A stretch of DNA of 54,971 bases. It comes from Chiloscyllium plagiosum. Taxonomy: Eukaryota. This document shows positions 1,441 through 54,571 of the stretch, in pieces (the stretch's first letter is position 1; each line of letters opens with the position of its first letter). The notes under the pieces are model-generated. The model searched no databases. It was not told where the DNA came from and was given only the letters and a program-made list of their open reading frames with translations. The position numbers and the translations under genes were made by a program. Location of the stretch: the NCBI RefSeq assembly GCF_004010195.1, contig NC_057719.1:20546731-20601701 (forward strand). The letters are read 5' to 3'.

Positions 1441-1484
1441 AACAGTATATAAGAACATAAGAACTAGGAGCATGAGTAGGCCAT

Positions 1485-1713
1485 TCTGGATCAGTGGTGC
1501 TGGAAGAGCACAGCAATTCAGGCAGCATCCGAGGACAGGCAAAATCGACGTTTCGGGCAAAAGCCCTTCATCAGGAATATTTATTCCTGATGAAGGGCTT
1601 TTGCCCGAAACGTCGATTTTGCCTGTCCTCGGATGCTGCCTGAATTGCTGTGCTCTTCCAGCACCACTGATCCAGAATCTGATTTCCAGCATCTGCAGTC
1701 ATTGTTTTTACCT
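1485..1713 (+). mobile_element. PLE-derived hairpin mini-element (perfect 97-bp arms 1483-1579/1582-1678 plus ~35-nt tail)
   Basis: Perfect palindrome with 2-nt loop; 15-bp TSD GCATGAGTAGGCCAT at 1470-1484 and 1714-1728; arm sequence resembles the 3' end of the RT-bearing element at 25556-27055. Confidence 0.9.
1583..1618 (+). ncRNA. Minimal type-I hammerhead ribozyme motif (mirror copy on - strand at 1543-1578)
   Basis: attc CUGAUGA A GGGC-uuuu-GCCC GAAAC GUC gauu. Confidence 0.8.
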
Positions 1714-2425
1714 GCATGAGTAGGCCATCTGGTCCTTCGAGCCTGCACCGCCATTCAATAAGATCGTGGCTGATCTTTTTGTGGCCTAAGCTCCACTTAA
1801 CCACCATCTCACTGTAATCCTTAATTCCTTTACTGTTCATAACATTATCTATCTTAGCTTTAAAAGTATTCAATGAGGAAGCCTCAACTACTTCACTGGG
1901 CAGGGAATTCCACAGATTCACACCCCTCGGAGCGAAGATGTTCCTTCTCATTTCGTCCTAAATCTGCTCTGCCTAATTTTGAGGTTATACCCTTTTGTCC
2001 TAGTTTTACCTAGCAGTGGAAACATCTTCTCTACTTCTATCTCATCAATTCCCTTTATAATTTTATATGTTTCTATAAGATTCCTCCTCATTCTTCTAAA
2101 TTCCAATGAATATAATCCCAGTCTACTCAGTCTATCCTCATAAACAAACCCCCTCAACTCCAGAATCAACCTAGTGAACTTCCTCTGCACCCCCACCAGT
2201 GCCAGTACATCTTTCCTCAAGTAAGGAGACCAAAACTGTATGCAGTACCCCAGGTGGCCTCACCAGCACCCTATAAAGCTGCAGCATAATCTCTCTGCTT
2301 TTAAACTTAATCCCTTCAGCAATGCTAATTATTCTGTGATAGTGTTGGTGACATTGGCTTTAGTTTCCCCATTATAATAGGGCATAGTAAATTGTTGCAC
2401 TGTTTAGCACCCTGCAACTTTGATT

Positions 2426-12516: not shown

Positions 12517-12778
12517 TCGAAAAGATGTTGTGAAACCTGAAAGGGTTCAGAAATGATTTACAAGGATGTTGCCAGGGTTGGAGGATTTGAGCTAAAGGGA
12601 GCGGCTGAACAGGCTGGAGCTGTTTTCGCTGGAGCATTGGAGGCTGAGGGATGACATTATAGAGGTTTATCAAATTATGAGGGGTATGGATAGGGTAAAT
12701 AGGCAAAGTCTTTTTCCTGGAGTCGGGGAGACAGGAACTAGAGAGCATAGGACGGGTTGGACCAAAGGGTCTGTTTCC
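12517..12778 (+). mobile_element. CR1 3' fragment with internal deletion
   Basis: RKDVVKPERVQK...MRGMDRVNRQSLFPGVGETGTREHR jumps directly to 3' UTR GACGGGTTGGACCAAAGGGTCTGTTTCC. Confidence 0.88.
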
Positions 12779-12942
12779 AAGGAGCAGGAGAATCGACGTT
12801 TCGGGCATGAGCCCTTCTTCAGGAAAGGGCTCGTGCCCGTAATGTCGATTCTCCTGCTCCTTGGATGCTGCCTGACCTGCTGCGCTTTTCCAGCAACACA
12901 TTTTCAGCTCTGATCTCTAGCATCTGCAGTCCTCACTTTCTC
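12777..12942 (+). mobile_element. PLE hairpin mini-element; intact hammerhead core on - strand (~12794-12829)
   Basis: Arms CCAAGGAGCAGGAGAATCGACGTTTCGGGCATGAGCCCTT / AAGGGCTCGTGCCCGTAATGTCGATTCTCCTGCTCCTTGG; tail ...CATCTGCAGTCCTCACTTTCTCC. Confidence 0.88.
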
Positions 12943-12955
12943 CAGTCTGGCCATT

Positions 12956-25554: not shown

Positions 25555-25917
25555 CTGTCCCCCTTAGTCCAAGAACTCCCCACCTACGTTCGGGACACCA
25601 CCGACGCCCTCCACCTCCTCCATGATTTTCGCTTCCCCGGGCCCCAACGCCTTATCTTCACCATGGACATCCAGTCCCTGTACACCTCCATCCCTCATCA
25701 CGAAGGACTCAAAGCCCTCCGCTTCTTCCTTTCCTGCCGTACCAACCAGTACCCTTCCACTGACATCTTCCTTCGACTGATTGAACTGGTCCTCACCCTG
25801 AACAACTTCTCTTTCCAATCCTCCCACTTCCTCCAAACCAAAGGAGTAGCCATGGGCACCTGCATGGGCCCCAGCTATGCCTGCCTCTTCGTAGGATATG
25901 TGGAACAGTCCATCTTC
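25555..25917 (+). CDS. Penelope-like reverse transcriptase, partial open frame
   Basis: LSPLVQELPTYVRDTTDAL...FTMDIQSLYTSIP...VLTLNNFSF...FLQTKGVAMGTCMGPSYACLFVG, no stop in 121 codons. Confidence 0.9.
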
Positions 25918-27055
25918 NNNNNNNNNNNNNNNNNNNNNNNNNNNNNNNNNNNNNNNNNNNNNNNNNNNNNNNNNNNNNNNNNNNNNNNNNNNNNNNNNNN
26001 NNNNNNNNNNNNNNNNNNNNNNNNNNNNNNNNNNNNNNNNNNNNNNNNNNNNNNNNNNNNNNNNNNNNNNNNNNNNNNNNNNNNNNNNNNNNNNNNNNNN
26101 NNNNNNNNNNNNNNNNNNNNNNNNNNNNNNNNNNNNNNNNNNNNNNNNNNNNNNNNNNNNNNNNNNNNNNNNNNNNNNNNNNNNNNNNNNNNNNNNNNNN
26201 NNNNNNNNNNNNNNNNNNNNNNNNNNNNNNNNNNNNNNNNNNNNNNNNNNNNNNNNNNNNNNNNNNNNNNNNNNNNNNNNNNNNNNNNNNNNNNNNNNNN
26301 NNNNNNNNNNNNNNNNNNNNNNNNNNNNNNNNNNNNNNNNNNNNNNNNNNNNNNNNNNNNNNNNNNNNNNNNNNNNNNNNNNNNNNNNNNNNNNNNNNNN
26401 NNNNNNNNNNNNNNNNNNNNNNNNNNNNNNNNNNNNNNNNNNNNNNNNNNNNNNNNNNNNNNNNNNNNNNNNNNNNNNNNNNNNNNNNNNNNNNNNNNNN
26501 NNNNNNNNNNNNNNNNNNNNNNNNNNNNNNNNNNNNNNNNNNNNNNNNNNNNNNNNNNNNNNNNNNNNNNNNNNNNNNNNNNNNNNNNNNNNNNNNNNNN
26601 NNNNNNNNNNNNNNNNNNNNNNNNNNNNNNNNNNNNNNNNNNNNNNNNNNNNNNNNNNNNNNNNNNNNNNNNNNNNNNNNNNNNNNNNNNNNNNNNNNNN
26701 NNNNNNNNNNNNNNNNNNNNNNNNNNNNNNNNNNNNNNNNNNNNNNNNNNNNNNNNNNNNNNNNNNNNNNNNNNNNNNNNNNNNNNNNNNNNNNNNNNNN
26801 NNNNNNNNNNNNNNNNNNNNNNNNNNNNNNNTCTCCGCCCCCACCCCACTCTGGCCTATCACCCTCACCTTGACCTCCTTCCACCTAGCACATTTCCAAC
26901 ACCCCTCCCCCAAGTCCTTCCTCCTTACCTTTTATCTTAGCCTGCTGGACACACTTTCCTCATTCCTGAAGAAGGGCTTATGCCCGAAAAGTTGATTCTC
27001 CTGTTCCTTGGATGCTGCCTGACCTGCTGCGCTTTTCCAGCAACACATTTTCAGC
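25556..27055 (+). mobile_element. 5'-truncated Penelope-like retroelement spanning the gap
   Basis: PLE-type RT before the gap, pLTR with hammerhead-like motif (26962-26996) after it; 12-bp TSD TCAATTACTAAC at 25544-25555 and 27056-27067. Confidence 0.92.
25918..26831. other. Assembly gap (914 N)
   Basis: Run of N. Confidence 1.
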
Positions 27056-27264
27056 TCAATTACTAACACATACTGGTTTAAAAATCATTATTCTAAAAAT
27101 AATAACAACTTATTTATTAAACTGCTTCTTAAAAATATGACAAAAGTCACATGCCACTGCTATAAGCTCCAAATTTTAAAATAAATCTTATATATATCAT
27201 ACACATTACATCACAATATGGTTGTATGAATGCAATATACCTCCTACACAAGGAAGAAAGAAAA

Positions 27265-27790
27265 TGCTGTATTTATTTCAACTTTTTCAAGTGTCACAAA
27301 ACACTTTACAGGCAAGGAAGTATAAGTGTAGGTACTAATGTGGTGTAAGAAATACAGTATAAAAGCCGAAAGAACTGCGAATGGTATAAATCAGGAATAA
27401 AAACAGAAATTGTTGGAAAACCTCAGCAGGTCTGACAGCATCTGTGGAGAGAAATTAGAGTTAAATTTTCGGGTTCCGGTGACCCTTCCTCAGAAGTGAG
27501 ACTGAGTTCTGAGGAATAACTACCAGACCTGAGATGTTAACTCTGATTTCTCTGCACAGATGCTGCCAGACCTGCTGAGCTTTCCCAGCAACTTCTGTTT
27601 TTGTTTAAGAAATGCAGTAGTTTATTTGTCCACAGGCAATTCACACAAATTGCATCGAGGTAATGACTGGATCATCGCTTTGATGTTGATTGAGGGATAG
27701 ACATTGCTTCAGATTTTGAATTTCTCAGCCCTTCTCGTCAATACTGCCATCTTTTCCACCCACCTGAGAAGGTAGAGAGATTCAATGCCT
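27265..27790 (-). mobile_element. Deu-domain SINE remnant, interrupted by a PLE hairpin
   Basis: CACTTTACAGGCAAGGAAGTA...TGATGTTGATTGAGGGATAGACATTG...ATCTTTTCCACCCACCTGAGA. Confidence 0.6.
27360..27605 (-). mobile_element. PLE family B hairpin mini-element
   Basis: Imperfect ~100-bp arms around an apex at ~27500; TSD TAAGAAAT(A/G)CAGTA at 27346-27359 and 27606-27619; GAGTT CTGAGGA...TGTT AACTC motif. Confidence 0.85.
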
Positions 27791-28477: not shown

Positions 28478-28845
28478 CATAGACTCACTACCATGAGAAA
28501 ACAGGCCATTCATCTGAAGGTCATCCCACCAGACTGATCCCCCTACTTGTCCCTGTAACCATGCATTTCCTATGGCCAATCCACCTAACCTGCACATCCT
28601 TAATTTGTGGGAAGAAATCCATGAATTCATTCCTGAAGAAGGGCTTATGCCCGAAACGTCAATTCTCCTGCTCCTTGGATGCTGCCTGACCTACTGCGCT
28701 TTTCCAGCAACACATTTTCAGCTCAGGGAAGAATCCATGTAGACACAGGGAGAAGGTGCAAACTCCACACAGAGTCACCCAAGAGAGGAACTGAACTCCA
28801 GTGCCTGGGGACATAAGACAGCATGCTAACCACTGAGCCACTGTG
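28478..28845 (-). mobile_element. HE1-like V-SINE interrupted by a PLE insert
   Basis: GGCCAATCCACCTAACCTGCACATC, GTGCAAACTCCACACAGAGTC, GCTAACCACTGAGCCAC. Confidence 0.88.
28624..28725 (+). mobile_element. 102-bp PLE insert: hammerhead motif plus pLTR end
   Basis: ATTC CTGAAGA A GGGC TTAT GCCC GAAAC GTC; TSD GGGAAGAA(A)TCCATG at 28609-28623 and 28726-28739; near-identical to 26960-27057. Confidence 0.9.
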
Positions 28846-29872: not shown

Positions 29873-30772
29873 ATTGTCTCTGACCTTGCCGTCCAACATA
29901 GCCTAGGAAAACCATAAAAAAAGGGATAGAAAGGCCAGGCAATCCAACACACTGTCAAGTAAGTCCATGCCTGAGGTACAGAAGTGTTATAATGTCACCG
30001 TGACACATTAATTCAACCTTTCCCAACCCCCACATCGACTCACACACAAGCTCTGCAGCAATCAGTGCAAGGTGACAGGGATGAGATTGTGAGATCTGAA
30101 GGTTCCTCACTTTGGACCAGCACTCAGGAGGTTGACACAATCACATCACTCTTGAACTAAGAACAAGGAAAGCATTTTGGCAGCTTTCTTCATATCTGAG
30201 CAGCCTTCTTTAAGATCCAGTCTGCCCATCCTACATGGGGAATGGCCCAGATAAAGTGCCCTAAAAACAGTCTGTTCTGTCACCTTCCTACCTGGAAAAC
30301 CACATTTAACAGGCTCATCTACCTGTGGTTTAACATGCGATAGAAGACCCTGTCAAAGGTCGCCTGTCCTGTGAAATTAATCAACATCCTTTGTCTCCGC
30401 CACAATAAGATTTCGGCATGGTCCTCACCAATGGTAATATGACTATCCTTTAAGGTCAAGACAAAGGTCAGACAGGAATTTGTCATCATCCCCATACTTT
30501 TATCCATCTTCATCACCATCACCCTTCATCTTGTCAAGCCTCCCAGTGGTGTGGATATAGTCGAAAGGATGGACAGGAAACTTTTCAACCTTAATCTATT
30601 GAAATCTAAGAAGAAAATGACACTGATCTCCCTTGGGGAAGTTCAGGACATGGATGACAATGTTCCTTCTGGTCTCTTAGAAGGAAATCGTCAAGCCTGT
30701 CTTAAGGTCTGCATGGAAGCATACCGATGAATTTGTCTCAGCCTCAACTGTAAGAATACATCAATCCTTTAC

Positions 30773-30963
30773 TAGATTAGAGTGGTGCTGGAAAAGCACA
30801 GCAGGTCTGGCAGCATCTGAGGAGCAGGAAAATCGACGTTTCAGGCAAAAGCCCTTCACCTCGATTTTCCTGCTCCTTGGATGTTGCCTGACCTGCTGTG
30901 CTTTTCCAGCACCACTCTAATCTAGACTGATTTCCAGCATCTACAGTCCTCACTTTTGCTTAG
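30773..30963 (+). mobile_element. PLE family A hairpin mini-element
   Basis: Arms TAGATTAGAGTGGTGCTGGAAAAGC.../...GCTTTTCCAGCACCACTCTAATCTA; 12-bp TSD TCAATCCTTTAC at 30761-30772 and 30964-30975. Confidence 0.9.
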
Positions 30964-31548
30964 TCAATCCTTTACCACCTTGTGCTAAGTCAAGTTTCAG
31001 ACCATTAAGATCAATGGAGAAATCCTCCCAGCTGTGGGACATTTCCCCTACCTGGGACCCTATTGCTCATCTAAAGATGATAGCGATGTAGAGATTTGCA
31101 TCCAAACTATGAATGATGCTTCAGACAACTAAGGATGCCAAGATCCTTGTGTATAAGGCAGTCATCTGTCTGACTCTTCAATATGACTCCAAAATTTGGA
31201 CTCCTTACTGATGTTATCTCAAAACTCTTGAGAAGGACCATCAACTCTGTCCGGAATGGATTCTCTGCATCACCTGGAAGGACAAATTCACTAAAATCAG
31301 TGTTCATGAAGCAGCTAACAGCACTAGCATCGAGACTATGATTATCCAAAACCAACACCACTGGGCTAGCTGTGTGTTTAGGATGCCTGAATTCCCATTG
31401 CCAAAGCAGGCTTTCTTGCCCAGCTCACGGAAGGCATTCAAACAAGAGGAGAACAAAGGAATTGTTTCAAAGACTGTTGAAGTCTTCCTCCAAGAAATGT
31501 AGCAGAAATGTCAATGCATGCCAGACCGTCTTACAGAAGAAATTTACA

Positions 31549-48821: not shown

Positions 48822-49794
48822 TCCTTCAGCTGTTAACACACAAACAAAGCACTGACCATATCCAACCAATCTGCACTTAGAATACTCAAAACATAGTGTA
48901 TAATATTTGATATGATTCTTCAAATTGGATGACATTTGCTAAATTATCCTGAACGGGCAAAGAATTGCAATGACAACCAATTTAGGACTCAGTCTGGTAC
49001 ACTTGCATGTATTGGAAGCTACATATATAGATAGACAGAACACTGTTCTTTACAAACAGAAAGGACACGTACATGTGCTGTGTCTTTTCAACTCAACAAA
49101 ATAGATGACAACCATTCACTGGCTCATTCTGCGGGGCAATGTTTGATTGATCAGAATCGAACTGAATGGTTTGAAAGTGAAATAAAACTGGTAGTTAATA
49201 GTCAATCATCATCAACTATTTCATTATCCATGGCAGTACAGTCCGGTTCCCAAGAAATTAGCACTTTTCCTTCTTACTGTATATCTGTTGGTTTTCCCCT
49301 TTATTGGTATTCTTGTGAGTTGTCATGATGAACGCAAAATGAAAAGCTTTTAAAAAGGTACTCCAATTATACTATATTTGTTTCTCTGCTGAGAAAAGAA
49401 TGAATCTCTAATTCCTTTCCATATGGTTCTAATTAAAAATTTGCAGAAAAACTTTGAGTTGTAATCATTTAAGAAAAGTGGCTGTTATTTTTCACAGAAA
49501 TTCATAGTGATGAAGATGCACTGAATTTACATCAACAGTGAGTGAGTTAGCACTTCTTAGTTGAACACTTCAAATGGGTAGAGTAACACTTCAGAATAAG
49601 TAGCACATATCCTCCAGATATTGACATAATGGATTGAGCATTTTCTTACATTGTGTGTACTGTCATATCATAAACACATTCATTGACCTATGACTTCTGT
49701 CTTCATTGTTATTTAAATTTGATTCTTCTCGAATTTCATGTGCTCTGTTTCAAATCAACTATGAACAAGAATTTTATTTTAATTTTATTCAAAC

Positions 49795-54426: not shown

Positions 54427-54571
54427 AATAAAAACTGAAAGAACTGCAGATTTTGTAAATCAGAACAGTTCTGAGGAAGGGTCACTTAACCTGAAACATT
54501 AACATTAACTTGATTTTTTTGCACAGATGTTGCCAGACCTGCTGAGCTTTTCCAGGAACTTCTGATTCTGA
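54427..54571 (+). mobile_element. PLE family B element with decayed hammerhead motif
   Basis: AGTT CTGAGGA A GGGTCACTTAACCT GAAAC ATT AAC; GCCAGACCTGCTGAGCTTTTCCAG; inverted tail piece at 54427-54464. Confidence 0.78.

Follow-up and report, generated by a model that had tools for sequence, protein, structure and literature searches.

Head-to-head leader hairpins of a Penelope-like element in Chiloscyllium plagiosum are probably twin-primed products made anew at each insertion

The genome of Chiloscyllium plagiosum carries many short palindromic insertions in which the 5′ leader of a Penelope-like element (PLE) occurs twice, head to head, once in each arm. In these insertions we observed the identity of the arms with the leader, one tail per insert, target-site duplications (TSDs) of 11–18 nt, a pile-up of 5′ ends at one site, an extra G at that site, and an apex that varies independently of the side of the tail. 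We argue that each hairpin was probably produced anew at its insertion site by twin priming on the leader, followed by run-off of both cDNAs at the 5′ end of the RNA, which is likely capped, and joining of the two ends by repair.

The focal insertion lies at 1470–1728 of the window, which is the whole 54,971-nt stretch that was analysed (contig NC_057719.1, positions 20,546,731 to 20,601,701, assembly GCF_004010195.1). Leader positions are numbered so that C3 of the hammerhead motif, window position 1587, is +1. A left TSD of 15 nt (1470–1484, + strand), delimited by alignment and by copies of the host repeat, overlaps the first arm by its final 2 nt. This arm is an inverted copy, without tail, of the leader repeat or pLTR (1483–1579, − strand, −5 to +92) and holds a minimal hammerhead motif at 1547–1574 (−). 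The second arm is a direct pLTR copy (1580–1678, + strand, −7 to +92), in which 1580–1581 form the apparent loop and a second minimal motif occupies 1587–1614 (+), with a cut predicted after 1614. It is followed by a 35-nt tail (1679–1713, +) and the right TSD (1714–1728, +). The preliminary description of this site, made from the sequence of the window, had given perfect 97-bp arms, an unpaired tail of about 35 nt and a 15-bp TSD, and all of these are borne out: the arms 1483–1579 and 1582–1678 are 97 nt each with 100% complementarity, and the TSD halves agree at 15/15 positions. The 2-nt loop given there stands as a spacing of 2 nt between the arms, but these nucleotides are templated leader sequence of the right arm. 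The hairpin folds with z = −26.8, and none of 200 shuffles folded equally well. Since the unit is nested in another repeat, of which 23 other sampled copies carry the 15-nt stretch once and so provide a virtual empty site, the direct repeat is a true duplication. In contigs from four runs of three organisms, no empty orthologous site was found that spanned the locus; the family is very deep and the flanks are themselves repeats.

The same design had been described at seven more sites in the window, with TSDs of 10–17 bp except at 12777, and all of them are present, varying in how much of the hammerhead each arm includes. At 12776–12943 the left arm is cut at +47 and no TSD was found. The copies at 30761–30975, 41218–41450 and 48621–48831 have arms starting at +5 and +27, +19 and −4, and +32 and +2, with TSDs of 12, 16 and 10 nt, respectively. 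A longer copy at 41781–42098 has both arms extending ∼40 nt upstream of the motif and a 13-nt TSD, and the copy at 44990–45256, with a 17-nt TSD, has a 12-nt locally templated insert at an apex that is unique in the genome. The seventh, at 27343–27619, has a longer stem II loop and a degenerate 17-nt TSD with 2 mismatches; by alignment it belongs to an older, distant family. Both arms include the whole motif only at 1.5, 41.8 and 45 kb, and to these the reported ribozyme motif on each strand is confined within the window. A lone, tail-less pLTR stub starting from −6 lies at 28627–28725 (+). Hairpins are also made by the older family, which differs by its longer stem II loop and by a compensated pair in the stem (27343–27619, 54471–54500 and similar weak matches), and the process is therefore old and recurrent. 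Two further features of the window are a separate inverted repeat at 42948–43152 (68-nt arms, 90% identical, 69 nt apart), which is unrelated to the Penelope leader, and two overlapping frames at 46691–47628 that match RVT_1 (E 2e-15 and 3e-7) and are likely a frame-shifted LINE fragment.

That the arms derive from a PLE leader came from longer copies. The element described as encoding a reverse transcriptase (RT) at 25556–27055 is indeed RT-bearing (25555–27058, +), but it is 5′-truncated, consists mostly of an assembly gap (∼25919–26832) and belongs to a sister subfamily and not to that of the 1.5-kb copy; its final pLTR lacks a tail. When the RT fragment at 25555 was used in a protein search, 150 of 32714 candidates were scored as matches. 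We fetched 29 other RT-bearing loci: 19 end in this pLTR ∼1.4 kb downstream (7 tailed, 12 tail-less), several of the remainder break off at gaps, and an inverted pLTR copy lies upstream in 8 of the 29. At one locus, L100, the RT is followed by a GIY-YIG motif (RVT_1 E 1.5e-4, GIY-YIG E 2.9e-4, both below the Pfam curated cut-offs); this copy is frame-shifted and belongs to a sister subfamily of the focal copy. Comparison of the RT with solved structures gave no match. In long copies, the tail continues into AG and then the start of the open reading frame (ORF; 8 and 181 exact matches). Because RT loci end in the arm and the tail leads into the ORF start, we conclude from sequence comparison that the arm is the 5′ leader of a PLE, probably one encoding RT and GIY-YIG, which recurs as the pLTR at the 3′ end of the element. 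The traits of endonuclease-bearing (EN+) PLEs are found here: RT with C-terminal GIY-YIG (in the sister subfamily), direct and inverted pLTRs, a 30–40-bp tail at one end and a variable TSD. The Penelope origin proposed earlier is thus upheld by the pLTR at the end of RT-bearing loci and by the variable TSDs. The pyrimidine run of the tail directly precedes the AG in long copies, resembling a 3′ splice site (window 1700–1713; L189–L196, L228–L257), and no donor was identified.

The wider population was sampled in 1.45 Mb, comprising 13 blocks on 13 contigs, with the window included in one. Filtering by score and at least 80% identity, which drops older families, reduced 338 profile hits to 259 arms, among which were 56 short head-to-head pairs with a median length of 204 nt, or 40 per Mb; extrapolated from this sample, the genome would hold ∼1e5 hairpins. 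TSDs of 11–18 nt, with a mode of 14, were found in 37 of 54 first-pass pairs and in 0/60 mismatched controls. The tail is on exactly one arm in 52 of the 56 pairs, the other 4 being scored as two-tailed, and in all 30 of 30 loci sharing one apex. Tail-less arms have their 3′ limit at about +86 to +92 and tailed arms at +122 to +128. Long inverted repeats, small size and high copy number would also suit a MITE or another derivative of a DNA transposon. The fixed short TSD and symmetric, transposon-related ends of such elements are absent, however, and the variable 11–18-nt TSD, the one-sided tail and the identity of the arms with an RT-element leader make this origin extremely unlikely and agree with the earlier view that the copies arose by retrotransposition.

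Could the hairpins be a mobile non-coding retroelement of their own, similar to a SINE or a retrozyme, with transcription and reinsertion of the whole unit? The preliminary description had offered this as one of two alternatives, with recurrence of identical apices at unrelated loci as the test. Apices do recur: at ∼40 hairpins per Mb, the commonest sampled apex has 737 exact occurrences genome-wide and the focal apex has 3. Recurrence is not decisive, since the side of the tail and the haplotypes speak for re-formation. In the first 30 of the 737 loci, which all differ in their flanks, the short arm is the tailed one 18 times and the long arm 12 times, and both classes carry the same haplotypes, several of them; for the focal apex, the tail is on the right in two loci and on the left in one. 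Because one master copy cannot yield both tail sides, nor two masters the crossed haplotypes, the 737-fold apex appears to have been re-formed each time through a 3-nt microhomology. A looser apex pattern matched 936 loci, and 46 different apices were counted by eye among the 50 listed; exact repeats there are confined to short simple apices, plus a near-identical pair 1.2 kb apart. The one complex apex that was checked, at 45 kb, is single in the genome. Furthermore, divergence in 49 pairs is 0.061 between arms, 0.031 between an arm and its nearest outside copy and 0.121 between random pairs. As the arm–arm value is about twice that to the nearest outside copy, the two arms would have decayed independently since insertion. 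Taken with the cost of ∼52 kcal/mol for opening the ribozyme core of the focal hairpin, described below, these data largely refute a mobile hairpin unit for the bulk of the hairpins, and we regard it as very unlikely. The near-identical pair (L026 and L027) shares a 15-nt complex apex except for one base and is probably a local duplication, as is the pair L264 and L265, whose flanks are shared.

The motif in the arms fits a minimal type I hammerhead in 117 examples, with the CUGANGA / GAAA / UH core, an extra base after A9, a G10.1–C11.1 pair and palindromic positions 15.2–16.2. Stem II is fixed with a variable loop, and a C–G pair is changed to U–A in older families. ACGU is found in 70/117 motifs, most of the others being explained by CpG decay. 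Helix I is weak: pairs 1, 2 and 4 are mostly standard, and pair 3 is U–U in 66/117. A search of Rfam gave no hammerhead family match and only sub-threshold microRNA hairpins. Both arms span the motif in 16 of the 56 sampled hairpins, with both cores intact in 9, so that a ribozyme on each strand describes these 16 and not the remainder, and pairing of the arms would bury the ribozyme. In the focal transcript, the hairpin is worth −203.7 kcal/mol and opening the ribozyme core costs ∼52 kcal/mol; the ribozyme is therefore predicted, from folding energies, to be inactive within it. No pile-up of 5′ ends was seen at the ribozyme cut site. Genome-wide, 267 copies have A or G before +29, under 1% of the ∼35,000 copies expected for the same 31-mer (scaled from 14 in 1.4 Mb), and 12 ends fall at +27 to +32, against 19 and 12 in the flanking 12-base bins.

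The 5′ ends accumulate instead just upstream of the motif. Among 168 arms reaching −1, 91 stop at −7 to −1, 1–7 nt before the hammerhead core, and the stop density there is 0.077 per base, against 0.004–0.016 in five other bins. Single stubs (34 unpaired arms) share this stop zone, and shorter arms stop throughout +1 to +45. For a motif of one young subfamily, 6146 copies genome-wide start at −3 and 5724 at −4, while 15396 keep the templated C at −5. The sequence around −4 fits YYANWYY, which we take to be the initiator consensus, with the A at −4 in 30/42 long reference copies. Copies comprising leader plus ORF begin at −7 to −1 in 7/30 cases, and 7 more are tandem. We considered a 3′ splice site at −4, like the one described for D. 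virilis (PMC4209133), and rejected it, since no AG lies before the boundary.

Copies starting at −4 also carry an extra base. Among the first 100 matches listed, the base preceding them is G in 65, A in 20 and T in 15, where a G share of 0.25 is expected (p about 1e-16), and this excess is present in single stubs and hairpins alike. Control positions among the matches listed gave G in 13/100 one base further in, and 46 G and 54 A at +29. The excess derives from one young subfamily; it was not seen in the mixed 1.45-Mb sample (5 G among 19 arms ending at −4; 14/72 versus 15/52). An extra G is a known trace of a reverse-transcribed m7G cap, according to work on LINE-1 and AMV cited in PMC4038843. 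The untemplated G in copies starting at −4 is what copying of a cap leads one to expect, although untemplated addition of C without a cap would give the same signal, some of the extra G’s lie within microhomology to the target or the other arm, and the ends range from −1 to about −10 rather than marking a single base. We suggest that the 5′ ends of the stubs, in their thousands, likely mark the start of a capped RNA of the element.

The other earlier alternative was that the hairpins are extreme truncation products, which does not agree with ends that cluster at one site and are not random. A related explanation is ordinary 5′ truncation combined with the known inverted pLTR: synthesis would start in the downstream pLTR of a read-through RNA and tend to fall off once past the structured hammerhead, and an RNA end would play no part. 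It accounts for the shorter arms that stop across +1 to +45, and read-through templates do exist, since ∼21/30 copies with C at −5 continue upstream (by eye). Nevertheless, synthesis has already passed the motif where it stops; the stop is at ∼10 times background, coincides with the initiator-like sequence and the untemplated G, and matches the 5′ starts of the leader-plus-ORF copies, and we consider truncation unlikely. The proposed run-off is also consistent with partial tandems, in 14/26 of which a second copy begins at −12 to −3 after a variable piece of ORF; such starts therefore fit a run-off cDNA jumping to another RNA. Short partial tandems occur, 65–300 nt after the tail, at L229, L230, L234, L235, L236, L239, L245, L248, L251, L253 and L255; they consist of the leader and a variable ORF piece followed by a second leader from about −4, and in some of them a short stretch of A marks the joint. 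They have the appearance of template jumps to RNAs that were broken or had ended too early.

How the second arm arises could also be explained by fold-back, in which a single cDNA, after run-off at the end of the RNA, folds back and serves as both primer and template for the second arm; self-priming has been proposed in PMC3846280. The arms nearly always share a haplotype, being discordant at one C/T site in 2/30 loci against 12.6 expected from independent templates, which supports the earlier claim that both arms derive from one source, and many apices are near-perfect palindromes, as fold-back would have it. But under fold-back the tail-primed arm should reach furthest 5′, and it is the tail-less arm that does so more often (28 vs 10, p = 0.005). 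Moreover, a tail cannot arise from copying a tail-less cDNA, tail-less arms end at +86 to +92 as single copies and long elements do, which indicates a priming site, a 3-nt slip is seen by eye in 4/60 arms and never in both arms of a locus, and apices with zero loop exist. Fold-back is therefore rather unlikely to be the source of the second arm. The junctions of the sampled hairpins comprise 20 short overlaps, 26 inserts and 3 blunt joints, with 7 ambiguous. Individual loci show further irregularities: at L001 (1400–1500), the tailed arm has a short internal tandem duplication and the other arm has none, and in the right arms of L218, L224 and L225 the apex region is copied once again inside the arm, as though priming had been attempted repeatedly while the ends were being joined.

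Our proposal of twin priming resembles a process of LINE-1, in which both target ends prime cDNA on the element RNA and joining by microhomology leads to an inversion. In LINE-1 the two cDNAs copy different, adjacent parts of the RNA, whereas here they would copy the same part, giving a palindrome. A dimeric protein would cut the target with a stagger ∼14 nt wide, and the 3′ ends of both nicked strands would prime in the leader, one at the end of the tail to yield the tailed arm and the other ∼35 nt nearer the 5′ end to yield the tail-less arm. Both cDNAs would reach the RNA 5′ end, ∼100–130 nt away, or terminate short of it; run-off would take place at a putative transcription start 4 nt upstream of the hammerhead core. 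Host repair could then join the cDNA ends through short microhomology or templated patches, and filling of the gaps would create the TSD. It is conceivable that the tail-less arm is made first and the tailed arm second, perhaps via displacement on the same RNA, an order that fits because the tail-less arm is more often complete. A single stub would result if just one cDNA survives, and priming in the downstream pLTR would give a long copy with an inverted pLTR. The hairpin product itself is likely dead.

An inverted pLTR, a one-sided tail and a TSD are a published architecture, of which the hairpins are the smallest form. The insertion unit of the EN+ element Pen2a_Av has a head-to-head inverted pLTR, a 30–40-bp tail at one end, a TSD spanning the unit and a palindromic inverted junction (PMC3846280; PMC8557442), all shared with the hairpins described here. 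Compared with the Pen2a_Av described there, these hairpins have no ORF, are ∼200 nt long, have a TSD mode of 14 rather than 8–10 nt, and are a dominant product, at ∼1e5 copies by extrapolation. The anole Poseidon protein cuts and extends both target strands in vitro, starting reverse transcription at two internal sites, one at each boundary of the tail (PMC11167929). These two sites match the 3′ limits of the tail-less and tailed arms seen here; a hammerhead likewise stands at the front of the Poseidon leader, and extension of both strands is what we propose for the hairpins as well. That paper describes neither palindromic products nor run-off at the end of the RNA nor a cap-derived G, and the Poseidon ORF starts inside the hammerhead, whereas here the ORF appears to start after the tail (PMC11167929).

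Minimal metazoan PLE hammerheads (PMC4209133) share with ours the core, the base after A9, the G10.1–C11.1 pair, the palindromic 15.2–16.2 and the lack of helix III, and pairs 100–700 bp apart on opposite strands were noted there; in the hairpins, by comparison, the two motifs are directly adjacent, with pairing predicted between them, and helix I is weak. Non-LTR retrozymes (PMC7229834; bioRxiv 10.64898/2026.07.22.740005) are small, non-coding, head-to-tail tandems with a type I hammerhead and kinship to PLE pLTRs. Size, non-coding nature, hammerhead type and pLTR kinship are common to the hairpins, but these are head-to-head and do not start at the ribozyme cut site, and autonomous propagation as a unit is unsupported. 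Our search of the openly available literature found no account of the miniature palindromic form, of twin priming by PLEs or of a cap-derived signal, though one may exist in Repbase, Dfam, supplements or subscription papers.

We would like to raise, tentatively, that the stubs could be the Penelope counterpart of retroviral strong-stop DNA, with a start primed in the leader, copying of the cap and a jump to another RNA end that is obligatory for making a long copy. If so, hairpins and single stubs would represent jumps that failed and partial tandems jumps that missed their target, and the short terminal repeat that guides a precise jump might come from cleavage of the downstream pLTR by its hammerhead. 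A single scheme would then cover the pLTR, the inverted pLTR and the tail, and the start sites of Penelope elements would be mappable from DNA alone.

The origin of the inverted pLTRs and tails of PLEs is stated to be undefined in PMC8557442. The ∼1e5 miniature products turn this open mechanistic question into specific tests, as they make hard predictions for the in vitro system that already exists: two cDNAs per target, one tailed and one tail-less, both ending at the cap. For the genome that carries them, the 200-nt hairpins seeded throughout can form double-stranded RNA in introns and can mimic microRNA precursors or MITEs in annotation.
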